This document shows positions 4,245 to 60,694 of a stretch of 64,000 bases of DNA, in pieces. Origin of the DNA: a virus; IMG/VR virus record IMGVR_UViG_3300036772_000425, positions 138,924 to 202,923 of that record. The stretch is one strand, 5' to 3'. A program made the translations under genes and the position numbers. The notes under the pieces were generated by a model that saw only the letters and a list, made by a program, of their open reading frames with translations, was not told the DNA's origin and ran no database searches. How positions within the stretch are numbered: position 1 is the stretch's first letter; the number at the start of each line of letters is the position of its first letter.

Positions 4245-4250
4245 GGTACC

Positions 4251-4280
4251 AGTCTACCTCCGGCGTCGGATCCGTTTCAC
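4251..4280 (-). promoter_or_regulatory. phage promoter GTGAAAC-N17-TAGACT (leaderless)
   Basis: motif; abuts 3' end of tRNA. Confidence 0.5.
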
Positions 4281-4281
4281 G

Positions 4282-4356
4282 GTGGGCACGCTCGGGTTCG
4301 AACCGAGACACTCCCGCTTATGAGGCGGGTGCTCTGACCGGTTGAGCTACGGGCCC
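4282..4356 (-). tRNA. tRNA-Met: tRNA-Met (anticodon CAU; could be Ile2 if lysidinylated)
   Basis: minus-strand cloverleaf GGGCCCG-TA-GCTC-AACCGGTCA-GAGC-A-CCCGC-CTCATAA-GCGGG-AGTGT-CTCGG-TTCGAAC-CCGAG-CGTGCCC-A-CC; T-loop TTCGAAC; one C5-U68 acceptor mismatch. Confidence 0.75.
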
Positions 4357-4372
4357 AGAAATGCGGACCGGG

Positions 4373-4396
4373 CGGGAGGGACGAATCCCCCTCCCG
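4373..4396 (-). terminator. candidate hairpin terminator downstream of 4426..5166 gene
   Basis: inverted repeat CGGGAGGG-acgaatcc-CCCTCCCG; T-poor tail so weak. Confidence 0.3.
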
Positions 4397-4425
4397 GCCC
4401 GTTCTTCACACCACCACGGTGCCCG

Positions 4426-5166
4426 TCAGCCCGCGGCCGCGATCGGTTCGACCTCCTCTGCAGGGGCGGCATCGACCGGTTCCGCGGCCGGAGCAGCATC
4501 GCTCATCTCGAGGACGGGCGGGAGCTCGGCCTCCGCGGCGACCGCTTCCACGTCGCTGCAGTAGAAGTAGAAGCCGTCGCCCCCGCCCGGGACCGGGCGG
4601 TTCTTCTCGCCGGGCACGTTGACGTAGCACCGGATCCGGCTCACCTTGACGACGGTGCCCGTCGCACCCAGGATGTGCGGGTAGTCGCCGCCGCGCACCT
4701 TCACCGTCTGGCCCACCACGAGCTCGCCGCCGGCGTCCAGGGCAAGCTTCGTCGACTGTGCCCGGCAGAAGTGGATGACGTGGTCCGCGAAGTTGGCCAG
4801 GTCCGGGCCCTCCAGGTTCGTCGTCGCCTCGTTGAAGAGCAGCTGTGCCCGGTCCGACATGGGCCGCAGCTTCGCCGCAGCAGCCTCCACCTTCTTCATG
4901 TGGGCAGGCGCTGCCGCCGCCGCACGGGCCTCGGCCGCGTCCTTGCGCTCCTGCTCCTTGGCCGCCTTGCGCTCGTTGCGCTCCTGCTCGATCTTTTCCT
5001 TCGCCGCGGCGCGCTCGGCCTCGGTGAGGCGGGGCTTCGCAGGCTCGGTCGACGCAGCGGAGGCGCCGGCGGTGCCCGCCTTCTTCGCGGCCGCACGCTC
5101 CTTTGCGGCGTTGATGGCCTTGTCGATGTCGGCGGTCGAGGCGGTGACGTTCTTCGTGTCGCTCAT
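4426..5166 (-). CDS. Lys/Ala/Glu-rich (H1-like) protein with C-terminal KOW/Tudor-like barrel (247 aa)
   Basis: start at internal Met MSDTKNV preceded by AAGAAGGA SD; AAKKA/KEKIEQER low-complexity coiled region; C-term GQTVKVRGG...GATGTVVKV. Confidence 0.55.
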   Translation of the reverse strand: MSDTKNVTASTADIDKAINAAKERAAAKKAGTAGASAASTEPAKPRLTEAERAAAKEKIEQERNERKAAKEQERKDAAEARAAAAAPAHMKKVEAAAAKLRPMSDRAQLLFNEATTNLEGPDLANFADHVIHFCRAQSTKLALDAGGELVVGQTVKVRGGDYPHILGATGTVVKVSRIRCYVNVPGEKNRPVPGGGDGFYFYCSDVEAVAAEAELPPVLEMSDAAPAAEPVDAAPAEEVEPIAAAG

Positions 5167-5399
5167 GGTGATTTCGTCCTTCTTTGCCGGCCGGTCCATC
5201 GGCCGTGCTTGATGGGTCCAATCTAACATGGGGGCAGGCATGACTACACAGTCGTGCATGGAAAACCTTCAACGCTGAAGGGCCTCGGGCGATCGACGCG
5301 CGATGTAAGGATCGCGTCTGCACCCTCGCGAGGGGGAACGTCGTCGCATCTGTCGGTCTGGCGCCGATCGGCAGAAGTTCCATGCTGCCTGCTTCTACG

Positions 5400-5428
5400 G
5401 TGAAGCGCAGGTCCAGCTGTGGTAGAAC
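5400..5428 (+). promoter_or_regulatory. candidate promoter GTGAAGC-N16-TAGAAC for plus-strand module
   Basis: motif resembling minus-strand family, about 65 nt upstream of 5495 start with SD GAAAGAAGAG. Confidence 0.3.
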
Positions 5429-5494
5429 TGGACTCAAGGAAACTGACCGGCAAGCAAGCCGGCCAAGTTATCCACCCTGAAAGAAGAGTACACC

Positions 5495-5788
5495 ATGTCG
5501 ATGCGTACCAAGTCCGCTCCCCGCCGCATCTACGTCCGTGCCTCCAAGTCCCTCGTCTGCTTCGGCGGCCTGTACTTCGGCCCCTCCGAGAAGAACGGCA
5601 GCGAGCTCGACGTCGCCACCGAGGTCACCATCGAGACGCTCGCACCCGTCGGCGGTCGCAAGCGGATCAAGGTCACCCAGGTCATCGGCGACAAACGCTC
5701 CTCGGAGAACTGGGTCGAGAAGCACCTCAACTTCGCCACCCGCAAGGCGGCGACCGAGTCGGACGCGGAGCAGGAAGCCGCGCAGTAA
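5495..5788 (+). CDS. hypothetical protein (97 aa)
   Basis: ORF track; SD-like GAAAGAAGAG upstream. Confidence 0.5.
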   Translation: MSMRTKSAPRRIYVRASKSLVCFGGLYFGPSEKNGSELDVATEVTIETLAPVGGRKRIKVTQVIGDKRSSENWVEKHLNFATRKAATESDAEQEAAQ

Positions 5789-5869
5789 TCACCGGTACGC
5801 ACCGAGCGCCTTTGGGCCTGGCAGGGAACCTCCTTGCTGGGCCTGAGGCCGTGGAAGGGGCAGGCGACA

Positions 5870-6088
5870 ATGCGACCCTACGGGCTCCGGATCATCGAGC
5901 ACCCCGACGTGGCGGACCTCCAGGAGATGGGGGCGAAGACCAGTGCCGGCGGGCGCAACTACCTCCGTTCGTCGGCCCAGAAGCGGGTGACCAGGCGGCG
6001 CTGGAAGCGCCTGGCGCGAGGGCAAGGGAAGGCAGAGACGGCCGAACAGGCCGAGGAAGGTACGTATGAGGCGGTTCAAGAACCCTGA
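5870..6088 (+). CDS. hypothetical basic protein (72 aa)
   Basis: internal Met of ORF 5834..6088; Arg/Lys-rich. Confidence 0.35.
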   Translation: MRPYGLRIIEHPDVADLQEMGAKTSAGGRNYLRSSAQKRVTRRRWKRLARGQGKAETAEQAEEGTYEAVQEP

Positions 6089-6190
6089 GACGAAGCGCTG
6101 GCGTGGCCGCAGCTACAAGCGAGGCGGGCAGCGCGTTCGCATGCTCCGTGACAGCTGCACCAGGGCGACCGACGCCCGGCAGGTGGACCG

Positions 6191-6382
6191 ATGAGGGCCG
6201 GCGGGTGCCTGGGGGTGCTCGCCGCGGTGCAGTTCCTGCTGCTGCTGGTCGCGGGACTCGCCGCGGTGGGTGGGCAGTCGATCGGGTGGGGCTGGATCCT
6301 GTCGCCCGTCCTGGTCCTGGGCGGCATCAGCGTGGCCTTCTGGGCGCTGTTCCTGACGGCCTGGGCGAAGTTCGGGAAGTGA
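6191..6382 (+). CDS. small membrane protein (63 aa, 2 TM)
   Basis: ATGA overlap with preceding short ORF; two hydrophobic helices. Confidence 0.45.
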   Translation: MRAGGCLGVLAAVQFLLLLVAGLAAVGGQSIGWGWILSPVLVLGGISVAFWALFLTAWAKFGK

Positions 6383-6556
6383 ACCACGGGCGGGGATCGT
6401 AAGGGTCCCCGCCCTTCTTCACGCGTTCTTCTCCACCCCTGGGCGCCCAGCTGCGCCGGCGGGGAACCACGCAGCCTGCGCGGTCGTCGGGATCAGAACG
6501 GCGTCGCAGCACGCGTGGCGGTGCAGGCACCGAAGCACCGGTGGTAGACTGGCAGC

Positions 6557-6748
6557 ATGCTGACTGACAAGGACAGGGTACGGTTGGAGTCGGAGATCGT
6601 GGACCTCAACGCCACCCGCATCTGGGTGCGCGGGCTGAAGGAGAAGAAGGAGCAGGAGAAGAGCTCGAGCCTGGCGGTCCGCCTGTATTACGCGGAGCGC
6701 GCCCTGGAGCTCGCCATCCGGGACCTGAACTGCGTCCTGAACGGGTGA
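6557..6748 (+). CDS. hypothetical protein (63 aa)
   Basis: ORF track. Confidence 0.4.
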   Translation: MLTDKDRVRLESEIVDLNATRIWVRGLKEKKEQEKSSSLAVRLYYAERALELAIRDLNCVLNG

Positions 6749-40328: not shown

Positions 40329-40495
40329 AGGCGGGCGACCTCGTTGCCGTTCAGGCACCACATCGTCCCGATCAGCATGGTCACGATGCACAGAACCCTG
40401 TCCATCGACCCGGTTGGGACACAGTAGGCACAGCACACCGCTCCGATCAGGAGCAGCTTGCTGACCAGGTACCCCAACCGGGTCGGGCTCATCAA
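40295..40495 (-). CDS. small membrane protein (66 aa)
   Basis: ORF track; hydrophobic LLLIGAVCCAYCV. Confidence 0.4.
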   Translation of the reverse strand: MMSPTRLGYLVSKLLLIGAVCCAYCVPTGSMDRVLCIVTMLIGTMWCLNGNEVARLQELSMTSEHE

Positions 40496-40767
40496 AGCCG
40501 CCGGGTGACCCGACCTCGGGTCAGGTCGTACGGGCTCACGGCCAGCAGGATCCTGTCACCGGGCAGCAGCCTGATCCTGTGGATCCGCATCCTACCGCTC
40601 AGGGTGCAGATCACCTCGTGACCGGTGCTGCACTTGATCCGAAAGAGCGTCCCGGGTAGGGCCTCGACCACCGTCCCGTCAAGGTCGATGCGGTCCTGCC
40701 GCTCCTCCTCGTCGGTTGTCGACCCGTGCGCCCGGTTGCGTCCATTCCTGTTCTTCTTCATTCTCAT
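40492..40767 (-). CDS. infA: translation initiation factor IF-1 homologue with basic N-terminal extension
   Basis: DGTVVEALPGTLFRIKCSTGHEVICTLSGRMRIHRIRLLPGDRILLAVSPYDLTRGRVTRR aligns with bacterial IF-1 ([61 protein letters not shown]); start set to internal Met MRMKKNRNG. Confidence 0.7.
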   Translation of the reverse strand: MRMKKNRNGRNRAHGSTTDEEERQDRIDLDGTVVEALPGTLFRIKCSTGHEVICTLSGRMRIHRIRLLPGDRILLAVSPYDLTRGRVTRRL

Positions 40768-40945
40768 CTTCCTGGCTGGGTCCTCCCAAGCCTGGGGGCG
40801 GGTTGACCAGCGATGCCTCGCGGTCGGTGTTGGCCGACGATATGCCCCCGGTATCGTACATGCCAGCCTGGTGTCGCATGGTATCGTCGACACCGAACTC
40901 CTTGATCAGCAACCGTCGCAGGCGCCCCAGGGTGATCCTCATGGT

Positions 40946-41326
40946 CTAAGTACACAGGTCGACCAGGCGTCGGGCCCAACACATCACCCAATCCCTGCTG
41001 GCCTCGTGCAGGGTACCGTCAGCCCTCACGATCACAAGGCTCGCGCCGTACAATCCTGGCCGGGCCAGACCCGACGGTAGTTTCAGTGCGGATGCATCGA
41101 GCTCCAGCACCGACCCAGCTCCCGTCATGCACACGATCTGTGCGCCGTTCGGATGGTACCCTGCGGCCATGATCAGTCGGGCACGATCGGGAGACGTCGC
41201 GACGACGTGCAGCTCCGGATCCGGCAGCAGCTGCAGGTACTCCGGCAGCTCCATGGTGAGCCCTTGCGCCTGGTCGATGATGAGGTGACCGTCGAGTTCC
41301 AGCTGCACAGTGCCACTGTACGCCAC
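40946..41326 (-). CDS. hypothetical protein (126 aa)
   Basis: ORF track. Confidence 0.45.
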   Translation of the reverse strand: MAYSGTVQLELDGHLIIDQAQGLTMELPEYLQLLPDPELHVVATSPDRARLIMAAGYHPNGAQIVCMTGAGSVLELDASALKLPSGLARPGLYGASLVIVRADGTLHEASRDWVMCWARRLVDLCT

Positions 41327-41344
41327 GTGGCATCGGTGTTACAA

Positions 41345-41566
41345 TCACGCATGCCCAGGTTCGCTGAACTGCCCCTGCCGGGTGACATGCTCCTCAACAA
41401 GTCGAACGACAGGATGGTGATGGTTGTCTCGAGCAGGGCGATCGAGTACCCGGGTCCCTGGACGCAGTTCCATGTCAACGTCCTGGACAGGGACAGGGTG
41501 GTGCTCTACGATGTTGACGATATCCGGTTCACCAACATGTTCGAACAGATCCATGATTCCCGATGA
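41345..41566 (+). CDS. PGD-motif small beta-barrel paralog (73 aa)
   Basis: LPLPGDMLLNKS...; TGTTACAAT -10-like just upstream. Confidence 0.5.
   Translation, partial: SRMPRFAELPLPGDMLLNKSNDRMVMVVSSRAIEYPGPWTQFHVNVLDRDRVVLYDVDDIRFTNMFEQIHDSR

Positions 41567-42729: not shown

Positions 42730-42733
<4 letters not shown>
42344..42733 (-). CDS. membrane protein (129 aa)
   Basis: ATGA overlap with GroEL stop; CWILLLLSVVLGSVLRLPVLGILTISV TM segments. Confidence 0.5.
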
Positions 42734-44385
<1,652 letters not shown>

Positions 44386-44416
44386 GCAAGCATACTAATG
44401 CAGAACGGGACGGTGT

Positions 44417-44877: not shown

Positions 44878-45146
44878 CGTTTGAAGCTGCGATGACCGGA
44901 AGAATTGCGAGCCTCGATGATCTTGTCTGCGCGCCGCAACGACCTGAAATGCTTCCTGACCTCTGAGATTGAATGCATGCTCAGGTTGGGATAGTTCCCA
45001 CGAACTGTTGGAATTCCTTGCTGAGCTAACATCCGATACAACTCATATTCATGTTCTCGAGCAGATCGAGAGAGTTCAACTTCGTCCGGGCTTCTTTCGG
45101 CAGGCGCAACCTCGTCCTGTTTCTCGGCGACGGGTTCTGCCTTCAC
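44829..45146 (-). CDS. hypothetical basic protein (105 aa)
   Basis: ATGA overlap with AAA+ ATPase stop. Confidence 0.5.
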   Translation of the reverse strand: MKAEPVAEKQDEVAPAERSPDEVELSRSAREHEYELYRMLAQQGIPTVRGNYPNLSMHSISEVRKHFRSLRRADKIIEARNSSGHRSFKRWQALRKQVLGKGYKT

Positions 45147-46525
45147 CCGTCGCCGGCGAGAGGGACCGGTTCGGTGTCAGGGGCATCGTCGTCCAACAGA
45201 TCGCCGATGGGCACCGAGGCGGTCGCTGCAGGAACAGCTCCGGAAGCGACAGCGGCCATCGCTTCCAGTTCACGTGCCCGTTCCAGCAAGACCATCATCC
45301 GGTTGATGTCACGATGATCTTCATCATCGTCACCGGAGAGCTCGTTGACCCTCTCCGTCAGCTCGACCATCGATCGTGAAGCTTCATCAGGGTCCATGAA
45401 CTTCCGACGCTTCACGTACTCGTTGATGAAAGCAATGGGCCAGTCCTTGACCAGCTCGAAAGCATCATCGTACTCGTCAAGGACATGGTGCACCACCTCA
45501 GCGTCCATCTTGTCGATGCAGACCAGTTCATCGATCCGGCCCGGTCGCTTCAGCGCAGTCTCCAACCGACCGCGGTTGTTGACGGTGGTGAAGATCAGCT
45601 TCACCTTCTCCTGGAAGAACTCCATGGTTTCCAGGAGGTCGCCCTGCGCATGGGCCCGATCGAAGTCGTCCATGATGACCACGTCAGGTTCGAAGATGTT
45701 GATAGCCTCGAACAGGGTCCCGTTGTCCAGACTCTGGAGGTCTGAGATCCGGATCCGGAAGCTCCGGAGGCCCATCAGCTCCACGATGGTCCGGGCCAGG
45801 GTCGATTTACCGGTCCCGGGCGGACCGTAGAACATCACGGACCTGCTGACGCCCTCAGCCAGTGGTCGCTTCAGGTACTCTGCGTAGCTGACGGCGCGGG
45901 CGGAGAGCTTCGACTGGAAATCATCGTCGATCTCGAAGATGATGTGCTCCTCGGCACGGGACGTGAACATGCCCGACCGATCGCTCTTCCGCATCAACAA
46001 CGATTTTCCAGAAAACTGCTCCCACAGCTGGGCCTTGATGTAGGCCCGGGCTGCGTCCAGGTGTTGAGCGTCCACGTAGATCCGTTCCACGTTCTGCTGG
46101 CGCCCACGGTAGGTCCAGCCGCACCGGATCCCACCGGGCAGGGTGCAGATCCGGATGAAGGTATGCTCTTCCGAGGTCTTGAAGCGCTCGTACGGATGAC
46201 GGACGAGGACGCTGAGCAAGGTTTGGGTGAAATCTGAGCTGTATGCCTCGCACCACTCACTGGTGGCGAAGTAGTCCTCCGACCACACCTCGGAATCCTC
46301 GACCATGATCTTTCCCATGCCGAAGATCGACTGGGCTCCCGCCCACCAGGTCGGCTTCTCCAGGAAGGGCGACATGGCACCGAACAGTTCGGTGCCAAGG
46401 ACGAACAACCGTTTCACGCGGGTGCTGCTCAGGTACAGCTGCACCTGTCGCAGGAAAGGCGCTTCAGTGTTCACCATGAGGTGAGGATCCTGGTTCGGAT
46501 CCATTGGAACTCGATTCTTCTTCAT
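45143..46525 (-). CDS. AAA+ ATPase (460 aa)
   Basis: Walker A FYGPPGTGKSTLARTIV, Walker B VVIMDDFDRA, sensor/Arg finger region LKRPGRIDE; large N-terminal non-ATPase domain. Confidence 0.85.
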   Translation of the reverse strand: MKKNRVPMDPNQDPHLMVNTEAPFLRQVQLYLSSTRVKRLFVLGTELFGAMSPFLEKPTWWAGAQSIFGMGKIMVEDSEVWSEDYFATSEWCEAYSSDFTQTLLSVLVRHPYERFKTSEEHTFIRICTLPGGIRCGWTYRGRQQNVERIYVDAQHLDAARAYIKAQLWEQFSGKSLLMRKSDRSGMFTSRAEEHIIFEIDDDFQSKLSARAVSYAEYLKRPLAEGVSRSVMFYGPPGTGKSTLARTIVELMGLRSFRIRISDLQSLDNGTLFEAINIFEPDVVIMDDFDRAHAQGDLLETMEFFQEKVKLIFTTVNNRGRLETALKRPGRIDELVCIDKMDAEVVHHVLDEYDDAFELVKDWPIAFINEYVKRRKFMDPDEASRSMVELTERVNELSGDDDEDHRDINRMMVLLERARELEAMAAVASGAVPAATASVPIGDLLDDDAPDTEPVPLAGDG

Positions 46526-47243: not shown

Positions 47244-47978
47244 TTACCTCGTCTCGAAGGCGAGCGCCAACTGCAGGCCCTCACTGTTGCACGGGTGTCC
47301 CTCAGAGTACCAATACTCAATGCGGCCGCGGTTGGACACGGTGACGATCGATGATGACAAGGTGCCCGACCCACCATCGGGTTCGTGCGCGCATACCGAG
47401 TGTCGGGTACCCAGGTCATGGCCGTGCGATGCCAGGAGCTCGTAGAGCCTGTCCACGATGGGATCGATCCCATCGCTTTCAGAGACTGCACCGGCGGCGC
47501 GCCACTGCGTGTCCCAGGCCTTCTGTGAATCCGGATCGAACCGACGGTTGGTGATCACGTGGGTGCCCGGATGCAACTCCTCCTTGTACCGGTTGTCGCT
47601 CATGATGAAGCGCTCCATCCTGCACGGCATGCCGTAGATCAGCTCGAACTTGCCGAACTCCTTGGCCCCCAGGCTCGCGCAGTAGTTCTGGACTCCGTAC
47701 ACGGTGCCGATGCTGAGCACGTCGGTGATCAGTTTGCCGCGGGAGCGTTCGCCGGGCGGCGAGCTCCAATCATCCTCGACCACGTTGGTCAGGGCAGCGA
47801 AGAACCCATCCCGATTGATCGCGAACCACGTACCGTCGGCGTCCAGATCCCACGGTCTGGCGATCCCATCGACCAGGGTGGGTCGACCCGTCCGCCTGCC
47901 GAACCGTTCATCACGGTTCCCAGCGACGACGAGCGGGTACCCAGGGACGATATCGTTCAGCACGATCAGTGTGCACAT
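47244..47978 (-). CDS. TANGO2/NRDE-family protein (DUF833)
   Basis: N-terminal MCTLIV...VVAGNRDE hallmark of NRDE/TANGO2 family. Confidence 0.75.
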   Translation of the reverse strand: MCTLIVLNDIVPGYPLVVAGNRDERFGRRTGRPTLVDGIARPWDLDADGTWFAINRDGFFAALTNVVEDDWSSPPGERSRGKLITDVLSIGTVYGVQNYCASLGAKEFGKFELIYGMPCRMERFIMSDNRYKEELHPGTHVITNRRFDPDSQKAWDTQWRAAGAVSESDGIDPIVDRLYELLASHGHDLGTRHSVCAHEPDGGSGTLSSSIVTVSNRGRIEYWYSEGHPCNSEGLQLALAFETR

Positions 47979-48178: not shown

Positions 48179-48368
48179 CTCCTCGTTCTTCCAGATGTTT
48201 CAGGATGACCTTCAGCTGCTCGTGCGCCGGGTTGTGCGCCACCTCGAACTTCTCGGTGAAGCCCATGAGCACGTAGATCCGATCGATCCCACCTGCGAAC
48301 GCGTCCATCTCTGCCAGGGCCATCCTCAGCTGCGTCCGGGTGAATGCAATGCGACGTTCAGGTGTCAT
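48168..48368 (-). CDS. hypothetical protein (66 aa)
   Basis: ORF track; overlaps neighbours. Confidence 0.4.
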   Translation of the reverse strand: MTPERRIAFTRTQLRMALAEMDAFAGGIDRIYVLMGFTEKFEVAHNPAHEQLKVILKHLEERGGTA

Positions 48369-49302
48369 ACGCCTCCATCAACCGCCTGCCGAGCCTCTTC
48401 AGGTACCGTGGACCGTACTTCGGGTTGCCTTGAGCCTCCAGGTCCCGTTCCAGGAACTTGGGCAGGACCTCATCCTGGTGCCTGCATGAGGCGATACCCC
48501 AGGCGACGGCCGCAACGGAGTCAGTGTCACCGCCCCATTCGATCACCTTCCTCATGATGCCCATGAGGGACGTTTCCTGCCGCAGCAAGGTACACACTGC
48601 CCAGGCGGTGTTCATGCCCACGTCGTACCCACCTTCCTTGCTCCGATCCACCCGGCCCTCCCAGGGGGTGCTCAGGAATTCGAGCCCATGGAGGTGTTGG
48701 TTCATCCAACCCAGGCACTCCGAGAATTCGAGCGATTCGTAGAGTGCAAAGTGGCTCAGCATGGCCACGATGATGGCGCTCTCGCAGCCTTCCTGGGTGT
48801 TGTGCGTCACCGCAGCCTGCTCACGGGCCGCAGTGATCACCATGTTGGGTGAGAACAGGACGCCGAGCGGGACCGCGCGCATGGCGGCACCGTTCTTCGT
48901 GGAATTCGGGATGATCCTGCGGCGCATGTCCTCGTGCGAGGTGGACTCCTCCAGGATCTTCTGGAACCCTCGGCTGTACCCGTCGCGCGGATCCCGCTTG
49001 AAGGCGTTGAAGAAGTGCGGATAGTAGTTCTCCTTCTGCAGGAAGTACGGGTACGAATGCCTGTGCGTCTTGGTCCCCGAGCTCAGCAACAGGAGGTCAG
49101 CGATGGCCAAACTCATCTGGCAATCGTCTGTGTACATTCCGGGTCGAAGCTTCAAGTGTGTTGGATGTTGTTGGTACGAATCAAAACGTTCGACAGCTGC
49201 GAAAAGCTTTGGGTGTTCTTCACGCTTCACGTACTCAACGGCTGACGCAAAAGCGTCAGCCTGAGCGATCCTGAGCAGCATGTTGTCGTTTGGGTTCTTC
49301 AT
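48358..49302 (-). CDS. ADP-ribosylglycohydrolase (ARH/DraG family)
   Basis: N-terminal LLRIAQADAFASAVEYV and C-terminal GGDTDSVAAVAWGIA motifs typical of ARH fold. Confidence 0.8.
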   Translation of the reverse strand: MKNPNDNMLLRIAQADAFASAVEYVKREEHPKLFAAVERFDSYQQHPTHLKLRPGMYTDDCQMSLAIADLLLLSSGTKTHRHSYPYFLQKENYYPHFFNAFKRDPRDGYSRGFQKILEESTSHEDMRRRIIPNSTKNGAAMRAVPLGVLFSPNMVITAAREQAAVTHNTQEGCESAIIVAMLSHFALYESLEFSECLGWMNQHLHGLEFLSTPWEGRVDRSKEGGYDVGMNTAWAVCTLLRQETSLMGIMRKVIEWGGDTDSVAAVAWGIASCRHQDEVLPKFLERDLEAQGNPKYGPRYLKRLGRRLMEAYDT

Positions 49303-49314: not shown

Positions 49315-49782
49315 TCAACGTGGCAGCTGGCGATCGTTGTACGCGTCGGCGAAATCCGCCATGGAATCGGCCGTGTCCCGGATGTCACACAGGAGTTGGA
49401 TCCCGAACCTGATGGCAGGCACGAATGGGCGCAGGACGAGCCTGACCTTGGAGCTGGATTCGACGATCCGGTCCAGGTCGTCCGAGTCCAGGTGCACCGT
49501 CCGCCGGTCGCGGTTCCGCCGGTACAGGGTGATGACCTGCGCGGTCACTGTCAACCCCTCCAGGAACCCGTAGCGTTCGTCCCACGCCTCGTTGCATGTA
49601 TCGCAGGGACTCTCGAAGACCTGTTCCGTCGGAGAGTCGAACTCGTTCTGACCGAACCGGACGGTCCCGGTGCAGGAGGTGCCGGCGCAGCACGAATCCC
49701 GTCCGCAGCAGCCCGGAAAGGACAGGTGGGTCCGGTACTGACCTGCGTAGAGCTTACGTAACTTCTGGTTTGCTGGGTCCAT
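49315..49782 (-). CDS. hypothetical Cys-rich protein (155 aa)
   Basis: ORF track; CCGRDSCCAGTSC. Confidence 0.5.
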   Translation of the reverse strand: MDPANQKLRKLYAGQYRTHLSFPGCCGRDSCCAGTSCTGTVRFGQNEFDSPTEQVFESPCDTCNEAWDERYGFLEGLTVTAQVITLYRRNRDRRTVHLDSDDLDRIVESSSKVRLVLRPFVPAIRFGIQLLCDIRDTADSMADFADAYNDRQLPR

Positions 49783-50377
49783 GTTTTTCCTTGCGCGCCC
49801 TCAGACGTGAGATGATACGATCACGGTACTTGGTCGTGGTCCGGACCTCGTTGTTGAGGACGGAAGCCTTCTCAAAGAAGTACAGCTCGTCGCGGCCTTC
49901 AGCACGGCCAGCAGCGGTGTGGTGATCCAGGGCGTAATCAGGGATGCAGAACCCGGGCCCGGTGCCCTCGATGCGCTGCAGCATGTCAGTCAGCATCTCA
50001 TCGACGAGCCGTGACTTGGAGCTGCGCGCCAGGTACACCGCCACGAAGCTGACGACCAACTTCCCACCCACGTACCCGGGCGGGAGGCTGTCGAAGAAGC
50101 GCCGGCAGTTCATCACCGTGTTGATGGCGTTCGGGTCGGCGATCCCTACGTCCTCCAGTGCACAGATCGTAAGTGATTCCCACATGAAATCCACGGCCTC
50201 GGCGCCCGACACCAGCATCTGGTTGGCCCAATGGAGCGCGTTCTCCTCGTTTCCGAGGCGAATCTCCTTGATCAGGGCTGACAGGACCTCCGCCAGGATG
50301 TAGCGCCCGTCTGGCGTGGTGCTCCTGTTCCAGTCGGGCCGTCGGGATGCCTGCGTTTTGAAGACGATGTTGTTCAT
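49754..50377 (-). CDS. MgsA/WRNIP1 C-terminal-domain-only protein (no AAA+ module)
   Basis: ALHWANQMLVSGAEAVDFMWESLTICALEDVGIADPNAINTV matches MgsA C-domain ALYWLARMLEAGEDP...ASEDIGLADPQAL; no Walker motifs. Confidence 0.55.
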   Translation of the reverse strand: MNNIVFKTQASRRPDWNRSTTPDGRYILAEVLSALIKEIRLGNEENALHWANQMLVSGAEAVDFMWESLTICALEDVGIADPNAINTVMNCRRFFDSLPPGYVGGKLVVSFVAVYLARSSKSRLVDEMLTDMLQRIEGTGPGFCIPDYALDHHTAAGRAEGRDELYFFEKASVLNNEVRTTTKYRDRIISRLRARKEKHGPSKPEVT

Positions 50378-51811: not shown

Positions 51812-52114
51812 TCACAGTGCGTTCTTGTGCTGATTCAGAAGGTCGTCGTCCTCGTCGATGACCATGTCTGCGATGCGCTCGTCGAGCCGATCCTTCAGCC
51901 CACGGTCCAGCGATCCGAGCTCAGAATCGTTGAGGAGGCGGATCCTCTGCAGCTCCGGCAGGTCACCCTCGGTGAGGGCCACGTCGATCTGTTTCTTCAG
52001 CGCGCTGAGACGGTTCCGACGCCTGCTCGCCCGTGACAGGAAGAAGATGGTTGTGAAGAGGACGATGCTCGGGACGAGCACCCCTCCGAACCCGACGATG
52101 ATCTCCCATGTCAT
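51812..52114 (-). CDS. membrane protein (100 aa, N-terminal TM)
   Basis: ATGA overlap with HEG stop; MTWEIIVGFGGVLVPSIVLFTTIFFL. Confidence 0.5.
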   Translation of the reverse strand: MTWEIIVGFGGVLVPSIVLFTTIFFLSRASRRRNRLSALKKQIDVALTEGDLPELQRIRLLNDSELGSLDRGLKDRLDERIADMVIDEDDDLLNQHKNAL

Positions 52115-52821
52115 ACCTGCACCTCCGGGACCGTTACGTGCAACCAAGTTTTGCCTTTGATGATGCCAAGCACGGTGAGATCAGTCACCCCAAATTTCGC
52201 AGCATAGAAAATGCATGCTGATTTGATCGTTGGGAACTCATTGAAGCTAGTTTTCACCTCGATGACTTGTGTTGTTGTCAACTTTGAGAGATTCGATTTT
52301 TCACCTCGATTCAAGGGAGACGAACGCAACCCTGCTGAAATTCGCTGTCTAGTGTTATCAGAAACATTCGCTCCCCATCGTGGGTTCTTCTCTCCACACA
52401 TTTTCCCCTGAAGTGAAGAACTGATATTTGCTCGTTGTTCAGGTGAACGTTTCTTCCCCCAGGATGGGTGCTTGGAACCACGATGATCGTGTTTGCCCTT
52501 GTTGGCTTCAGACAACTTCTGACGGTGTTCTAGACTTTTTGGGACGCCCGCCCTCTGACCAGCACCACCAGGGTTTTTGTTAGCGCCCCAACCCTTGCTG
52601 GCTTCTGTTTTGAAATGACTGATCAGGAACTTTTCACACCGCAATGTGGTTTCATGTTCAAAAGACTCGAACATGATTGTTCTGTGACTGCCGTACAAGT
52701 TGACGTAGTAGTCATGTAAATCACTACGATGAAGTCCGTTAACTCGACCTCGAGTGCCTTTTCCAACGTAGAAAGGTCTGGGTTCTGGTTCATCTGTCCA
52801 GTCTACGTACACGTATAGCAT
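52111..52821 (-). CDS. GIY-YIG homing endonuclease with NUMOD3 repeats (copy 1)
   Basis: YVYVDWTDEPEPRPFYVGKGTRGRV GIY-YIG core; repeated G.KHS.E..KIS motifs; start set to Met aligned with copy 2 (track ORF extends to 52950 over Fpg gene). Confidence 0.7.
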   Translation of the reverse strand: MLYVYVDWTDEPEPRPFYVGKGTRGRVNGLHRSDLHDYYVNLYGSHRTIMFESFEHETTLRCEKFLISHFKTEASKGWGANKNPGGAGQRAGVPKSLEHRQKLSEANKGKHDHRGSKHPSWGKKRSPEQRANISSSLQGKMCGEKNPRWGANVSDNTRQRISAGLRSSPLNRGEKSNLSKLTTTQVIEVKTSFNEFPTIKSACIFYAAKFGVTDLTVLGIIKGKTWLHVTVPEVQV

Positions 52822-52822
52822 G

Positions 52823-53653
52823 CTACGTTTGACAAATACGACACCAATGTGTCGTTCGTCCATCTGCCGTGATCTCTCGTTCAACAGAATGTCCTTGTGC
52901 ATCACGATCTCGATCGTACACACGGAAGCCAAATTGAGCTTGGCCAGCACTGCCGTCCACGTTCTTGTATGAACGTAGCGTGGCTCCTTTTGATTCGTAT
53001 GAAGATCGCATCACATCGATCGTATGTTCATGAAGCAAGACAATTTCAGCCGCTGTCAGGCTATTCACAATTCGATGTGGTGAAATCCCACTACGATGTA
53101 TACATTCTGCCTTCACGTAATTGCCCACGCCGCTGACCACCGACTGGTCCATCAGGGCCTCCACGACCGTCTTCCCGTCACGGTGGTACAGGCGATCCAG
53201 GAACTCCAGCACAGTGGGTGGGGAGTTCAGCATGTCGGGGCCCAGTGTGCTCAGCTTCTTCGCCAGTGCCTCCCGGCCCTTGACGAACTTCAGGGTACCG
53301 AAGTGCCGCTGGTCGTTGAAGTGCACGCTGGGCATGCAATCTTCCAGAATGCCGACCCGGTCGGTGCCGTGGGTCACCGACAGCGCCGAGTGGGGCGACC
53401 GTGTGGGTTCCCACTGCCCTGACATCCCGTAGGTGCACCACAACGACCAGTCCGGACCCAACGTCCAGTACATGAACTTGCCCTTCACGTCGATGCCGCG
53501 GACGATGCTCGCCCCACGATCCTGCCGCATCTCGTGCATGAACTGTTCCAGGCCGTCGGGCTGCCTGTCACGGTACCGCCCTCCGGGCCGATCGATCGAC
53601 ACGATGCGGCGACCGACCAGGATCCCACGTAGCTGATCGCGGCTCCTGGCCAA
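52823..53653 (-). CDS. Fpg/Nei-family DNA glycosylase (N-terminus atypical/uncertain)
   Basis: H2TH motif DQSVVSGVGNYVKAECIHRSGISP and C-terminal CRIC zinc finger; TTG start in track; in-frame upstream codons encode PEGPELARS (PELPEVE-like) without an obvious start. Confidence 0.7.
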   Translation of the reverse strand: MARSRDQLRGILVGRRIVSIDRPGGRYRDRQPDGLEQFMHEMRQDRGASIVRGIDVKGKFMYWTLGPDWSLWCTYGMSGQWEPTRSPHSALSVTHGTDRVGILEDCMPSVHFNDQRHFGTLKFVKGREALAKKLSTLGPDMLNSPPTVLEFLDRLYHRDGKTVVEALMDQSVVSGVGNYVKAECIHRSGISPHRIVNSLTAAEIVLLHEHTIDVMRSSYESKGATLRSYKNVDGSAGQAQFGFRVYDRDRDAQGHSVEREITADGRTTHWCRICQT

Positions 53654-57113: not shown

Positions 57114-57887
57114 ATGTCTCAACTCTGGTACGTGTACGTTGACTGGACTCTTGAAATCGATCCAAGACGATTTTATGTCGGAAAGGGCAACAGAGGTCGG
57201 GTGTATGCAACACAAAGTGGTGCACGAAATGCACTTCATGGTCATTTCGTGCGGAAATACGGCCTTCATCGAACAATCATGTTTGAAACACTGGATGAGC
57301 ACGAAGCCTATGCAGTAGAAAGGCACCTCATCAAACTCTACAAGACTTTCGCCCATGGCGGCGAAGGTTGGTTCGGTGCGAATCTTGACATGGGCGGAAT
57401 GGGTGGTGAATCCACTCCGAAATCACTTGAACATCGACAAAAGATTCGAGAGTTCATGAAGACAAGGGTTGGTTCTAAAAACTCTTTCTACGGGAAACGA
57501 CACGACCCTGGAACTATTCAAAAGATCAGAGAATCGATGCTCGGTGAGCTTGGACCATGCTTTGGTCGCACTGGTTCGGCACATCCCATGTTTGGGACAC
57601 ACCACTCCAAAGCAGCATTGAACAAGATGTCTGTCTCTCATCTCGGTAAGAGCTTGACACCCTCACACGTAGCAGCCATCAAACTTGGACACCAAAAAAG
57701 AAATGAGCAACGTCGTCAAAGGGATGCACAGCTCATCGAACTTGTGAATTCAGGATTGAGCGTGAAGAGCGCCGCGGCCCAACTTGGCGTCGGAGTCAAT
57801 ATCGTTTACGGAGCTTTCAACCGTCTACGATCGCTTCAAAAGTCCCAAAGTTCGGAACAAGTTCTTGTTGTAGCGAACGAAGGGTGA
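57114..57887 (+). CDS. GIY-YIG homing endonuclease with NUMOD3 repeats and C-terminal HTH (copy 2)
   Basis: MSQLWYVYVDW...FYVGKGNRGRV; repeats G.KHD/S..K.S; C-terminal SVKSAAAQLGVGVNIVY HTH. Confidence 0.8.
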   Translation: MSQLWYVYVDWTLEIDPRRFYVGKGNRGRVYATQSGARNALHGHFVRKYGLHRTIMFETLDEHEAYAVERHLIKLYKTFAHGGEGWFGANLDMGGMGGESTPKSLEHRQKIREFMKTRVGSKNSFYGKRHDPGTIQKIRESMLGELGPCFGRTGSAHPMFGTHHSKAALNKMSVSHLGKSLTPSHVAAIKLGHQKRNEQRRQRDAQLIELVNSGLSVKSAAAQLGVGVNIVYGAFNRLRSLQKSQSSEQVLVVANEG

Positions 57888-58402: not shown

Positions 58403-58753
58403 TCACCTGGAGCTGGGTTTCAATTCGTGGAACTTCGTGTTGAGGATGTTCCACAGGGTCTGCTCTGCTGCACTCCGGTCACCCTTGAAGTGGTTCATCA
58501 GGCCCGGGAACCGTTGGGCCGCGTACCTGACGACCTGCGCTCGGATCCCGGGCCACAGCGGATGACCGATCTCTGATTCCACGTCAGTCAACCAGGACTC
58601 AGCGAAGGATGTCGCCTCCGGGAAATCAGACGATCGCAGGCCGGTGAACGGCAGCTTGACGCCGGTCGCACGCTGCAACCTGCCCAGGAACCGATGGTCG
58701 AGCCTGAGCTCGACCATGTAGTCCCTGATCAACCGCCGCTCGACCAACCTCAC
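58403..58753 (-). CDS. hypothetical protein (116 aa)
   Basis: ATGA overlap with endolysin stop. Confidence 0.5.
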   Translation of the reverse strand: MRLVERRLIRDYMVELRLDHRFLGRLQRATGVKLPFTGLRSSDFPEATSFAESWLTDVESEIGHPLWPGIRAQVVRYAAQRFPGLMNHFKGDRSAAEQTLWNILNTKFHELKPSSR

Positions 58754-59916
58754 CTACGCCCACCGAACAGGGAACCCATGAACCCAAGGATGGTGGACAG
58801 CACTGAAGAACCTGACTGCTGGGCCGTGGCTGTGACCGGTTCCGGTACGGGTTCAGTGGGCTCAGGAACGGCAGGTTCGGTGGGTGCCTCGGGTTCAACC
58901 TCGGCGGGCGCCTCGGTGACCGGCTGCGGAGGCTCGGTAAGGGCAGGCAGCAACCGGTCAGGATCGACCCACTCCACCAACGGCCTGTTCCAGTTGGTGA
59001 GCACGGCACCTGTTCCCTCGGTGATCGCATTGTCGGTTCGGCCGCCGCCTGCATGGTCAGCAGATCCATGCTCGTCCACCGGACCCATCAACCACTCCAC
59101 GTGGTCGTCGTTCTTTCCTACGGTGTTGTACCGCAGCAGGCTGCCCGGTTTCGGCAGCGTGTGACCATCGAACTTGACGAGGGCGCCCAGGTCCTGCGCG
59201 ACCTGCCGGACCCAGGCGACCGCCATCCCGTTGACGTAGGGTTTGCTGAGAAGCGGGTGCTCAACACCGATCTGCTTCATGATCCCGAGCGCGGTGGTGG
59301 CACAGTTGGTGGCGATGGTCACCACCTTCTCTGGGTCGTCCACTCCGCGGGCCACCAACCTGCCCAGGTCATCGCGGCGGGCCTTGAGGCTGCATCCCAC
59401 GTACGACCTGACTGTCTCGATGATCTCTTTGGCGGCGTGGCCAACATCGTCGGGCGACGGTGGTGCCTTCTGGACGATCACCGTTCCCTTCAGGAAGAGC
59501 TCACGTTCGGCCTGGCGCCTGTTGACCAACCCTTGGATCACCTTCCCACCACCGTGTGTCCACTTCAGGAACTCATCGGCTGCGCCCTGCAGGTCACCCG
59601 TGTTCAGCTTCTTCAGCAGAGTCGAGGTGGCGAACGCTCCCACTCCCACATTGAAAATGAAGCTGGCGATTGCATCGCCCTGATTTTGGGTCAATGACAC
59701 CTTGACATCAACATCGATCGCTTTTTCAGCGACCTGCACGTCTTGAGCAAGAATGGTGAGAGCCTGCTCTCGGCTGATCCCATTTGGAAACGATTCACCG
59801 GGCCTTACAACGTGTCCAACTCCGATGGTGGAAATTCCGACGCTGTCCAGGTAGGTGTGAAGGACACACCCTTCCATCTGCATGATGAACTCGAGACCCT
59901 CAGGTGATACTTTCAT
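58750..59916 (-). CDS. endolysin: GH24 (T4-lysozyme-like) muramidase + central Cys/His domain + Pro-rich linker + C-terminal TM anchor
   Basis: EFIMQMEGCVLHTYLDSVGISTIGVGH vs T4 e [33 protein letters not shown]-rich linker; terminal LSTILGFMGSLFGG. Confidence 0.85.
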   Translation of the reverse strand: MKVSPEGLEFIMQMEGCVLHTYLDSVGISTIGVGHVVRPGESFPNGISREQALTILAQDVQVAEKAIDVDVKVSLTQNQGDAIASFIFNVGVGAFATSTLLKKLNTGDLQGAADEFLKWTHGGGKVIQGLVNRRQAERELFLKGTVIVQKAPPSPDDVGHAAKEIIETVRSYVGCSLKARRDDLGRLVARGVDDPEKVVTIATNCATTALGIMKQIGVEHPLLSKPYVNGMAVAWVRQVAQDLGALVKFDGHTLPKPGSLLRYNTVGKNDDHVEWLMGPVDEHGSADHAGGGRTDNAITEGTGAVLTNWNRPLVEWVDPDRLLPALTEPPQPVTEAPAEVEPEAPTEPAVPEPTEPVPEPVTATAQQSGSSVLSTILGFMGSLFGGRR

Positions 59917-60694
59917 GTCAGTAAGTATGAGTTCATACGTCTACATGGTCCAGAACGTTCTGTCGGGAAAAGCCTACATCGGTGTTTCGAAAGGAAACCT
60001 GCACAGGCTCCAAGAACACAGAGAAGGGATCAAATCGAATGAACACCTGCAGAACGCAATCAGGCGATACGGAGTTGAAAACTTCAGGTTTGAATCCATC
60101 GAAGAGTGGGACACGTGCGAAGAGGCGCTGCAAGCAGAGCATGATATCATCGTGTACCTAAAAGCGATGGGAGCCGTGCTCTACAACAAGACTGACGGAG
60201 GTCGAGGTTGTTTGAACCCATCGCCTGAAACGAGAATGAAAATGCGGTTGGCAAAGCTCGGGGAGAGATCGCATCGATGGGGCAAGAAAGATTCTGAAGA
60301 AACCAAGACGAAGCGTGCCAAGAGCGTAAGCAAGGCGTTGACGGGACGAAAACGAGGTCCTCATTCACCTGAATGGAACGAGAAGATCCGTCAAAGCAAT
60401 CTCGGTCTAAAACGGATCATCACTGAAAAGATGCGTGAGGCGCACAGGCTTAACGGCGAACGGATGCGTGGGAAACCCACACCCATGAACAAATGCCCAC
60501 CCTGGAACAAGGGTAAGAAAACGGGTCCGATGGACCCTGACATGGTGCGCCGGCGGGCCGAGCGCATCAAGGATTCAAAGCGTTCCGAACACACGAAAAC
60601 GATGATGAAAGCGAGCGCTCGGCTTCGAGAAGCACGCAAACGTTTCCGAAAAATGGCCCACCGTTGGCTGGGTCGAACCCACGAGACATCCTAG
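59915..60694 (+). CDS. GIY-YIG homing endonuclease with NUMOD3 repeats (copy 3)
   Basis: SYVYMVQNVLSGKAYIGVSKGNLHRLQEHREG; AGGTGA SD before Met-12 of track ORF. Confidence 0.75.
   Translation: MSVSMSSYVYMVQNVLSGKAYIGVSKGNLHRLQEHREGIKSNEHLQNAIRRYGVENFRFESIEEWDTCEEALQAEHDIIVYLKAMGAVLYNKTDGGRGCLNPSPETRMKMRLAKLGERSHRWGKKDSEETKTKRAKSVSKALTGRKRGPHSPEWNEKIRQSNLGLKRIITEKMREAHRLNGERMRGKPTPMNKCPPWNKGKKTGPMDPDMVRRRAERIKDSKRSEHTKTMMKASARLREARKRFRKMAHRWLGRTHETS

Follow-up and report, generated by a model that had tools for sequence, protein, structure and literature searches.

A phage-encoded homologue of translation initiation factor IF-1 with a basic N-terminal tail encoded within the end of the preceding gene

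The window analyzed here, a 64,000-nucleotide stretch of a viral genome record (IMG/VR IMGVR_UViG_3300036772_000425), contains on its minus strand an open reading frame at 40492..40767 (stop codon included), the translation of which is MRMKKNRNGRNRAHGSTTDEEERQDRIDLDGTVVEALPGTLFRIKCSTGHEVICTLSGRMRIHRIRLLPGDRILLAVSPYDLTRGRVTRRL*. The preliminary description of this DNA, made from the sequence alone, had placed at this position a homologue of bacterial InfA, and results of our profile searches confirm both the location and the family assignment. The product matches the PF01176 profile with E=1.7e-21 and 76.1 bits (gathering score 30.2), with residues 29-90 corresponding to profile positions 3-64 of 64, as well as the infA equivalog model TIGR00008 with 81.1 bits (cut-off 61.15 bits) over profile positions 1-68 of 69. 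Its scores exceed the trusted cut-off of this equivalog and not those of cold-shock or S1 family models, and they reach only 15-18 bits with the aIF1A/eIF1A models NF003082, NF003083, NF003084, and TIGR00523, whose cut-offs are 91-130. The identity to solved IF1 chains is 45-52% over 65-69 aligned residues. The family match is far above chance level, and the reading frame encodes a bona fide IF-1. It is longer, however, than a typical IF-1 of ~70-75 residues that starts with MAKE or MSKE, as it comprises 89 aa, 18 of which form an extra, basic N-terminal extension.

Four genes on the same strand, orf126, orf87, IF-1, and that of a small membrane protein, make up a conserved cassette that follows a phage GroEL gene (Table 1). 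Homologues of orf126, detected with tblastn, are located 5' of orf87/IF-1 in loci L002-L016, and orf126 itself was called by JGI as a 120-aa protein (P0365). In loci L002, L102, and L103, GroEL is encoded 2-3 genes 5' of IF-1. The small hydrophobic protein is also called in L001, and in relatives small hydrophobic ORFs, e.g., of the 'EHPYLTF' type, follow the IF-1 gene. Unlike bacterial infA, which has a ribosomal-protein context, the IF-1 gene of the window resides in a phage cassette by GroEL and starts inside another gene; rpmJ was found downstream of IF-1 in none of the 34 phage-type loci (0/34). That this IF-1 is phage-encoded, as had been proposed, is corroborated by the presence in the window of phage genes (an endolysin/tail-lysozyme-like protein, three homing endonucleases, and several PHROG families) and by relatives with the same gene order in IMG/VR contigs of 278-370 kb, with 14 related loci on viral contigs no longer than 369 kb. 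The proposed rarity of phage IF-1 copies agrees with tblastn matches in just 36 of 50,697 phage records. Since megablast of 5 kb around IF-1 against 50,697 phage records gave no match, no close cultured relative is to hand.

Table 1. Features of the IF-1 cassette and of the upstream GroEL gene (coordinates within the window).
Feature	Coordinates	Strand	Remarks
Phage GroEL	42730..44385	minus	phrog_5725, E=1e-147; upstream of IF-1
orf126, conserved, unknown function, first cassette gene	40946..41326	minus	Stop 3 nt before orf87 ATG
orf87, conserved small gene of unknown function	40679..40942	minus	Homologues 5' of IF-1 in clade loci
Dual-coding zone: orf87 C-terminus and IF-1 tail	40679..40761	minus	Variability by codon position
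IF-1 CDS	40492..40761	minus	89 aa + stop; alternative start 40767, two codons upstream, would give 91 aa
Lys/Arg/Asn-rich tail MKKNRNGRNRAHGSTTDEE, codons 1-19	40705..40761	minus	~18 residues past canonical IF-1 start
IF-1 core: canonical N-terminus ERQDRIDLDG, then OB barrel	40495..40704	minus	AlphaFold, residue conservation
Small hydrophobic protein, 65 aa	40295..40492	minus	ATG overlaps IF-1 stop as TGATG; sequence reading

Searches of Pfam and PHROG returned no match for orf126, orf87, the small membrane protein, or a plus-strand ORF at 41153..41566, and the only hit of a word-indexed homologue search with orf126 was orf126 itself. The Rfam scan detected nothing besides tRNA, and the scan of the IF-1 surroundings for sigma-70 promoter and terminator consensus sequences found none. 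A tRNA(CAT) encoded at 4281-4356 was considered as an initiator tRNA partner of IF-1 and rejected, since its G1-C72 pair and the lack of three anticodon-stem G-C pairs assign it to the elongator tRNA-Met or tRNA-Ile2 type. One gene caller missed both orf87 and orf126.

The predicted structure of the IF-1 core is that of an S1-like OB fold. The AlphaFold model, in which pLDDT exceeds 90 across residues 25-88, contains five strands (25-34, 39-44, 49-54, 70-75, and 82-88) and a short helix (56-60) between strands 3 and 4. In a Foldseek search, it superimposed on IF1 chains, including ribosome-bound ones, with an rmsd of 0.8-1.1 Å over 65-68 residues and a probability of 1.00. The model stops at strand 5, with neither a C-terminal helical domain nor an acidic C-terminal tail. 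In ribosome-bound IF1, K39 and M42 contact the 530 loop, R41 and R46 contact A1492/A1493, and H35, Y60, R64, and R66 face S12 (PMC10913371); binding to 30S requires R69, while the action of R64 is on h44 (PMC4611024). The window protein has R39, R41, I42, R46, Y60, R64, R66, and R70 (E. coli-type numbering), and the residues at these positions are near-invariant among 45 phage-type sequences. It thus shares with bacterial IF-1 not only the family and the OB barrel but also R41, R46, Y60, R64, R66, and R69/70.

Metagenomic relatives of this protein numbered 519, of which 80 were kept. In a neighbor-joining tree, the window IF-1 belongs to a phage-only, monophyletic clade of 21 distinct sequences (76/100 bootstraps), the loci of which range in GC content from 33% to 69%. 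The nearest cellular matches by E-value are those of Anaerolineae. A recent capture from a Chloroflexota host was nevertheless rejected, given the GC range and monophyly of the clade and its position in the tree, which is not beside the Anaerolineae sequences. Variability of the IF-1 core has a strong third-position pattern (0.31/0.21/0.67 for the three codon positions).

The basic N-terminal extension noticed in the preliminary description is real. Translation of IF-1 must begin 5' of ERQDRIDLDG, the segment homologous to the N-terminus of canonical IF-1, because the stretch from the ATGs at 40767 and 40761 to this segment contains no in-frame start codon; a tail-less IF-1 made from a downstream start is ruled out, as there is no start codon at which it could begin. 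The second ATG is the more likely start: AGGAAG is located 6 nt 5' of it, the methionine of relatives aligns there, and an identical JGI protein (P0001), found on a 340,433-bp contig, was called as 89 aa. The tail is predicted to be disordered (pLDDT < 50 at residues 1-3 and 8-20). All 21 distinct sequences of the clade have an extension, 5-20 aa in length (median 17), with a net charge of +2 to +5 over the first 10 residues; at cellular-type loci (n=53), the median extension is 1 aa.

The DNA of the tail lies within orf87. The product of orf87 comprises N-terminal helices, a PPPGLG motif, an acidic run, and a C-terminus of the QxGARVxDR type; AlphaFold predicts two helices at residues 5-25 and the rest with low confidence. 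Its family includes 94 clusters, all annotated as 'hypothetical'. The final 83 nt of orf87 overlap the beginning of IF-1, which is read in the +1 frame with respect to orf87. In most loci of the clade, an orf87 homologue directly precedes IF-1, in the same relative frame with one exception, and the overlaps are of 23-131 nt. The IF-1 ATG, which sits in an orf87 codon NAT followed by G, is kept in all aligned loci, including those of GC-rich genomes, and so the synthesis of IF-1 solely by a +1 frameshift out of orf87 is an unnecessary assumption. At the level of sequence comparison, the structure of the clade, its GC spread, the constraint on the core, and the kept ATG speak for long-term selection on IF-1.

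In the overlap, the three IF-1 codon positions have pairwise variabilities of 0.35/0.54/0.45, the pattern expected of the orf87 frame; from ERQDR onward, the values are 0.41/0.16/0.70, the pattern of the IF-1 frame. In the orf87 frame, variability is of coding type both 5' of the overlap and inside it. Judged by these patterns, orf87 and IF-1 appear to be a dual-coding (overprinted) pair, in which the orf87 frame is dominant in the overlap. Since substitutions in the overlap follow the orf87 frame, the tail sequence is not under ordinary protein-level selection, and conservation of the tail is limited to its composition and its first 5-7 residues. The basic character of the tail can be derived from the acidic tail of orf87, whose GAA/GAG codons are read out of frame as AAG/AAC/AGA (AGN) in IF-1. 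Of the view that the tail is a designed modification of IF-1, implied in the preliminary description, the extension stands and the design is not supported: the tail is inside a conserved overlapping gene and evolves mainly under its frame, so that its composition may in part result simply from the overlap.

These observations bear on an alternative which we regard as quite possible, if somewhat below even odds, namely that the tail is a passenger. The position of the IF-1 start inside orf87 would be incidental, perhaps serving to couple the expression of both genes, and the basic composition would be automatic and add nothing to function. Besides the out-of-frame reading of the GAA/GAG runs, this is consistent with the finding that the most variable position of the overlap is the third position of orf87 codons (0.54 vs. 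0.35 and 0.45) and that conservation is higher for the C-terminal motif of orf87, QxG(A/V)RVxDR, than for the residues of IF-1 that share its DNA. Moreover, in one clade member (L034), orf87 ends just before IF-1 and the extension has just 5 residues, which indicates that a long tail is dispensable. However, basic tails persist in relatives that lost orf87 (L009, L013/14, and L048) and in the product of gene 4 of phage DAC16, which suggests that the tail has a use of its own. The first tail residues, M-x-K-K/N-K/N/R-K/R-N, are alike in genomes of 33% to 69% GC. Additionally, in P0359, a natural in-frame fusion of orf87 and IF-1, the basic MKNKNRHQ still comes after the acidic segment, although no frame trick is needed there.

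We therefore prefer, with a probability of roughly 0.6, the reading in which the gene encodes a functional IF-1 paralogue of an old phage lineage, with an overprinted tail that plausibly makes an extra contact with rRNA or mRNA. The tail would have originated by overprinting, with the IF-1 start codon arising within the part of orf87 that encodes its acidic C-terminal tail. As to its use, eIF1A/aIF1A proteins have a homologous OB domain, occupy an equivalent A-site position, and possess an unstructured basic N-terminal tail, which in yeast eIF1A contacts tRNAi, mRNA, or rRNA in the closed complex (PMC5756025, PMC5037330). By analogy, the most plausible role of the phage tail would be to add electrostatic contacts to rRNA or mRNA close to the decoding center, although the two tails are alike in composition only and the window IF-1 is not a member of the aIF1A/eIF1A family. 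The N-terminus of IF1 tolerates additions, as E. coli IF1 with an N-terminal His tag is functional in kinetic and cryo-EM experiments (PMC13345285).

The OB core keeps the determinants of binding to the 30S A site, and during infection the phage protein would most likely sit there like the host IF-1. It may thereby raise or sustain IF-1 activity, which in turn would favor 30S initiation, 70S scanning or re-initiation, and the translation of leaderless-type and tightly packed phage genes. The premise of leaderless transcripts in this genome, put forward in the preliminary description, has sequence-level support in the enrichment of hexamers that resemble -10 elements and are spaced from ATG such that transcripts would begin at the start codon or right beside it: GGTANNNT-N6-ATG occurs 7 times (0.4 expected) and TANNNT-N6-ATG 16 times (4.5 expected). 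In at least 10 such sites, the ATG is the first start codon of a coding-like ORF. One of these ORFs is GroEL; its promoter-like element, TAGTAT-N6-ATG at 44383-44397, has been conserved in L002 and L102. The pattern is enriched in relatives, too. IF1 and IF2 were reviewed as stimulating leaderless mRNA translation in vitro, where IF3 is inhibitory at high concentration, and IF1 also stimulates 70S scanning in vitro (PMC9031893). Hypothetically, the window IF-1 might discriminate between classes of mRNA, e.g., by favoring leaderless ones, the tie between the two being, as far as the sequences indicate, one of co-occurrence only. What the sequences establish is the family and fold of the protein, the conservation of its residues, the structure of the clade, the overlap with its frame-specific constraint, and the leaderless-type starts, whereas binding to 30S, an effect on initiation, a function of the tail, and a preference for leaderless mRNAs are what we infer.

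The core differs from that of bacterial IF-1 at several otherwise conserved positions. Throughout the clade, including the window protein, T replaces H at position 35 (H/Y35 to T in 91%), and further clade-specific changes are Y/F44 to R/H/K (95%), L26 and A34 to C, and K/M42 to I/Q; the window IF-1 carries T35, R44, C26, C34, and I42. The T35 and R/H44 changes could affect how the protein works with the ribosome or with IF2/IF3 instead of preserving normal function. Conceivably, the protein is an IF-1 mimic directed against the host, which would occupy the A site with altered S12, IF2, or IF3 faces and so weaken IF3-dependent discrimination or block host initiation, resulting in shut-off or reprogramming of host translation. 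We consider this unlikely, even though H35 is among the S12-facing residues that are perturbed upon 30S binding (PMC10913371), the conserved anchoring points of IF1 hold the C-terminal domain of IF3 in its discriminatory position (PMC5037330), and leaderless translation is antagonized by IF3 (PMC4611024, PMC9031893). The retention of all reported rRNA-contact residues and the unchanged fold are what would be expected of a working factor. R44 is, moreover, shared with a cellular group in which rpmJ is downstream of infA (L038, L060, and L066), and is thus compatible with normal function.

Still more speculative, and in our opinion improbable, is that the tailed IF-1 and orf87 act together as an initiation module of two parts, specific to this jumbo-phage lineage, which would re-tune host 30S/70S ribosomes to leaderless mRNAs, e.g., via looser IF3-dependent discrimination. 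The basic tail of IF-1 would then correspond to the N-terminal tail of eIF1A and the acidic tail of orf87 to its C-terminal tail, the latter supplied in trans or, in the natural fusion, in cis. If true, viruses would have evolved a eukaryote-like elaboration of bacterial IF-1. The role of an off-ribosome RNA chaperone or cold-shock-like RNA-binding OB protein, whose tail would raise the affinity for phage transcripts, appears very unlikely, because despite the small S1-like OB fold, the basic surface with the added basic tail, and the RNA chaperone activity reported for E. coli IF1, conservation is concentrated on residues contacting h44, the 530 loop, and S12, and it is the infA equivalog cut-off that is passed.

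Phage IF-1 genes themselves have been known since 2020; what is new here is that the tail is dual-coded within the end of the preceding gene. The novelty of a phage IF-1 implied in the preliminary description was too high, as IF1 is listed, together with IF3, among huge-phage genes by Al-Shayeb et al. 2020 (PMC7162821), where such genes are interpreted as a means to intercept or redirect host translation. Those IF-1s, as well as the ones of Lak phages and Sinorhizobium phage Phosso, are likewise encoded by phages with genomes of hundreds of kilobases. In contrast to the window protein, however, they have canonical starts (MAKE..., MAKT..., MADK...) without a tail and are placed outside its clade in the tree. 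In the passages on such genes, phage rpS21 is described with N-terminal extensions of basic and aromatic character, and none is mentioned for IF1 (PMC7162821). In the literature searched, no mechanism was described for any phage IF-1, and initiation factors go unmentioned in a recent review of jumbo phages.

A similar tail in a cultured phage is that of Bacteroides phage DAC16 gp4 (QIG63237.1) and its DAC/SJC relatives, an IF-1 homologue with a basic extension of ~30 residues. A few small genes separate its gene from an upstream phage GroEL gene, the gene begins in overlap with the ORF before it, and the protein ends in RITRRL, as does the window IF-1. The two proteins nevertheless have only 38% identity, DAC16 gp4 keeps Y44 and is outside the clade in the neighbor-joining tree (0/100 bootstraps), and no orf87 homologue was detected in DAC16. 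Other overprinted genes of phages and viruses have similarly long out-of-frame overlaps, with an older constraint in one frame and a disordered, compositionally biased extension in the other. In the case of orf87/IF-1, by comparison, the segment joins a universally conserved translation factor, and an in-frame fusion is also found in nature. The pair cleanly illustrates how overprinting can give a new segment to a protein that is among the most conserved in bacteria.

Translation factors encoded by phages are viewed as a means of redirecting the ribosomes of the host, and this IF-1 lineage offers a defined, testable case, with a kept A-site surface, an eIF1A-like basic tail, genomes with many leaderless-type starts, and a conserved partner gene that shares the DNA of the tail; DAC16, as a cultured relative with a similar tail, is open to experiment. 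In current annotations, phrog_30201 is labeled 'unknown function' and DAC16 gp4 'hypothetical protein'.

Judged from the comparison of related loci, the phage lineage to which the window protein belongs has a conserved IF-1 core that is under purifying selection, possesses its own start codon and lies in a GroEL-proximal cassette. The preliminary description had placed an IF-1 homologue with a basic N-terminal extension in the window, and profile matches agree with this assignment: the ORF matches PF01176 with E=1.7e-21 (76 bits; gathering score, 30), the infA equivalog TIGR00008 of NCBIfam with 81 bits vs. 61 (profile positions 1-68 of 69), and also phrog_30201, labelled 'unknown function'. 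Residues 21-88 of the 89 aa form align without gaps with twelve solved IF1 sequences (E=1e-13 to 1e-22). The AlphaFold model of the protein, built on 23 relatives, is five-stranded and has one short helix; its pLDDT is >90 at residues 25-88 and <50 at residues 1-3 and 8-20. Foldseek superimposes this model on IF1 structures, ribosome-bound chains among them, with rmsd of 0.8-1.1 Å over 65-68 residues.

The extension (tail) is also real. ERQDRIDLDG corresponds by homology to AKEDxIExxG at the N-terminus of canonical IF-1s. Before this segment, its frame contains two start codons, both ATG (40767 and 40761), and no others, so the extension is not a gene-calling artefact. The second ATG appears more likely to be the start, because it is preceded by AGGAAG 6 nt upstream, aligns with the Met of relatives, and is the one from which the identical database protein (P0001) was called at 89 aa. 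A purine-rich stretch precedes the IF-1 ATG, there is no -10-like hexamer at this place, and the gene is internal to its operon.

Features of the window discussed in the text
Feature	Position	Strand	Match or remark
tRNA(CAT)	4281-4356	-	sole tRNA in the window; G1-C72 pair, anticodon stem CCCGC/GCGGG
887 aa vault-domain protein	30572-33235	+	major-vault-protein shoulder domain PF11978, E=5e-29
IF-1	40492-40767	-	91 aa, or 89 aa from the second ATG
orf87	40679-40942	-	starts 3 nt after orf126 stop; 3' end overlaps IF-1 by 83 nt, out of frame
orf126	40946-41326	-	conserved ORF upstream of IF-1
GroEL, phage-type	start 44385		phrog_5725, E=1e-147
Host-like genes beside GroEL	47244-47978, 48358-49302, 49754-50377, 45143-46525	all -	TANGO2-domain protein (PF05742, E=8e-27), ADP-ribosylglycohydrolase, MgsA_C-domain protein, AAA ATPase
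Homing endonucleases, GIY-YIG type	52111-52950, 57114-57887, 59882-60694	-, +, +	phrog_314
Endolysin/tail-lysozyme-like protein	58750-59916		phrog_7, E=2e-57

The closest database proteins (P0002-P0025) are 52-71% identical to the window IF-1 over the full length and all have the extension, while the next-best matches, IF-1s of Chloroflexota, cover the core only. A scan of IMG/VR and JGI metagenomes yielded at least 21 distinct sequences of this clade, from loci with GC of 33% to 69%. In a neighbour-joining tree of 70 sequences, the clade was monophyletic in 76 of 100 bootstraps, with the sequences of Chloroflexota, Lak phages, two Al-Shayeb huge phages, Sinorhizobium phage Phosso, and the cultured Bacteroides phage DAC16 outside it. 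In E. coli-type numbering with Met1 (the E. coli reference used had three spurious C-terminal residues, which leaves positions 1-70 unaffected), the cellular H/Y at position 35 is T in 91% of the clade, Y/F at position 44 is R/H/K (95%), L at position 26 is C (60%), A at position 34 is C (67%), and L57 and Y69 are replaced by V and W, respectively. In IF1, K39 and M42 touch the 530 loop, R41 and R46 touch the flipped A1492/A1493, and H35, Y60, R64, and R66 face S12 (PMC10913371), while 30S binding requires R69, and h44 is acted on by R64 (PMC4611024). The 30S-contact residues are kept in the clade except for position 35, with the window protein having R in place of K39 and the clade I/Q in place of M42. 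The deep, conserved, and phage-only distribution of these IF-1s argues against their recent capture from a host and for retained function.

In the 21 clade sequences, the tail extends 5-20 residues beyond the canonical start (median 17), opens with M-x-K-K/N-K/N/R-K/R-N, and has a net charge of +2 to +5 over its first ten residues. In contrast, other huge-phage IF-1s start canonically, without the tail, which is therefore not general to phage IF-1. A basic extension of ~30 residues, like the clade tail, is present in the 101 aa IF-1 homologue of DAC16 (gp4, QIG63237.1; MT074137.1; L017 627-932), annotated as 'hypothetical protein' and separated from the upstream GroEL gene by a few small genes; since GroEL lies at the opposite end of this linear record, the genes are close to each other where its ends meet. 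The same arrangement is found in five related DAC/SJC phages.

N-terminal extensions, of ~13 residues (MSKEKKNTNDG...), occur also in a group of cellular infA products (L038, L060, L066; also L078, L079, L086), which have in common with the phage clade the motif HRIRLLPG/NRIRLLPG. The rpmJ gene directly follows infA in three loci of this group, and follows IF-1 in none of the 34 phage-type loci. Certain IF-1s of Chloroflexota/Anaerolineae (P0028, P0031, P0034, P0048, P0062, and P0087) have a basic-then-acidic C-terminal extension (e.g., ...YRFKKKSPVPEEE), reminiscent of the acidic tail at the C-terminus of eIF1A.

The phage origin of the window is well supported. Its GC content is 62.7%, its small ORFs are densely packed, and, in addition to GroEL, it encodes an AAA ATPase and an exonuclease, a NinI-like phosphatase, and other phage-like products. 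An identical IF-1 is carried by a 340,433-bp JGI contig, 14 related loci belong to viral contigs from IMG/VR as long as 369 kb, and the order AAA - GroEL - ... - IF-1 - ... - metallophosphatase is common to the window and a 369-kb relative. No near match to the window was found among 50,697 phage records, and no capsid, portal or terminase genes were found within the window. Directly after IF-1 lies a gene of a small hydrophobic protein, the ATG of which overlaps the IF-1 stop codon as TGATG. The three homing endonuclease genes are in low-GC islands (0.55 vs. 0.63), and one of them flanks the endolysin/tail-lysozyme-like gene.

In nearly all relatives, IF-1 has both orf87 and orf126 before it; one gene caller missed the two and called the plus-strand ORF 41153-41566 instead. 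An HMM made from the non-overlapping part of orf87 detected, in most of the clade loci examined, a homologue adjoining IF-1 on its upstream side. In all but one of these loci, IF-1 is read in the +1 frame with respect to orf87 and overlaps it by 23-131 nt; in the exception, L034, orf87 is in the IF-1 frame and stops just before IF-1. The orf87 family comprises 94 database clusters, all 'hypothetical', and has no Pfam domain. In the AlphaFold model of its product, residues 5-25 form two N-terminal helices, and the chain beyond them, modelled with low confidence, is probably disordered. The tail is basic because the orf87 acidic run, GAA/GAG/GAC, is read out of frame as AAG/AAC/AGA, and the basic tail is still present in loci without orf87 (L009, L013/14, L048).

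To measure frame constraint, 18 loci were aligned with MAFFT in a frame-neutral manner, and mean pairwise nucleotide differences were calculated for each codon phase. In the orf87-only region, the values for orf87 positions 2/3/1 are 0.46/0.70/0.49, as in normal coding in the orf87 frame; in the overlap they are lower overall and still follow this frame (0.35/0.54/0.45), and from ERQDR onward the values for IF-1 positions 1/2/3 (0.41/0.16/0.70) correspond to normal coding in the IF-1 frame. An ungapped three-sequence comparison was concordant. In the overlap, which is part of the IF-1 coding region, conservation is higher for the C-terminal orf87 motif (K/S)Q-x-G-(A/V)-R-V-x-D-R than for the IF-1 residues read from the same DNA. 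In every aligned locus, the IF-1 ATG is made up from an orf87 codon NAT and the following G, with NAT kept even in GC-rich genomes, where the synonymous NAC would be expected, which suggests that independent initiation at this ATG is under selection. A natural in-frame orf87-IF-1 fusion of 147 aa (P0359) is encoded by two contigs from two lake-type samples (L102 5001-5444 and L103 2578-3021), directly after GroEL, a 68-aa gene, and an orf126 homologue.

The premise of the preliminary description that this genome has leaderless transcripts was, against our expectation, supported at the sequence level by the enrichment of start motifs. The arrangement GGTANNNT-N6-ATG occurs at 7 sites in the window vs. 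0.40 ± 0.59 expected. Five of them read GGTA(G/A)ACT(G/A)G-N4-ATG, at the starts of minus-strand ORFs ending at 613, 2355, 3236, and 4244 and of the plus-strand ORF beginning at 6557. TANNNT-N6-ATG occurs at 16 sites vs. 4.5 ± 2.1 expected; 14 of the 16 lead into ORFs of 50 aa or more, and at least 10 coincide with the first start codon of an ORF whose GC3 is coding-like, GroEL being among these ORFs. Leaderless-type start sites are located at 254-6748 (both strands) and at 24019, 26198, 44383, 52791, 55142, and 57102. In relatives, GroEL is preceded likewise (TAGAAT-N6-ATG in L002, TATGAT-N5-ATG in L102), and the arrangement is enriched over shuffles in L002, L007, L008, and L023. By the spacing known for sigma-70-type promoters, transcription from a -10-like hexamer ending 6 nt before ATG would begin with the A of this ATG or beside it. 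The recurrent motifs look like a promoter family giving leaderless mRNAs.

The 2020 huge-phage paper (PMC7162821) reports IF1 and IF3 in such phages, so phage IF-1 is already known; phage rpS21 with basic N-terminal extensions is described there as well. A limited literature search found no description of an IF-1 lineage that is monophyletic, confined to phages and basic-tailed throughout, of dual coding of an IF-1 tail with a conserved partner gene, of a natural orf87-IF-1 fusion, or of a tailed IF-1 co-occurring with leaderless-type gene starts.

The simplest reading is that the phage IF-1 would bind the 30S A site as IF-1 does and, as a supplementary factor, would keep initiation going on the many leaderless-type, tightly packed genes of the phage. 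Translation of leaderless mRNAs is inhibited by IF3 at higher concentration (PMC9031893, PMC4611024), and IF1 anchors the IF3 C-terminal domain in a discriminatory position (PMC5037330). The tail may have been born by overprinting and then kept, as a short stretch of basic residues by the decoding centre could be harmless or useful. IF1 is functional despite an N-terminal His tag (PMC13345285), and in the closed complex, the basic N-terminal tail of eIF1A, the counterpart of IF1 (PMC5037330), touches tRNAi, mRNA or rRNA (PMC5756025).

Two further features of the window deserve mention. The vault-domain protein, which is unusual for a phage, has also weak Vault-repeat and SPFH/Band 7 matches and no PHROG match. 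The G1-C72 pair and the anticodon stem of tRNA(CAT) rule it out as an initiator, and from its sequence it is assigned as an elongator tRNA-Met or a tRNA-Ile2 precursor; just downstream of it there is a GGTAGACT-N6-ATG start.
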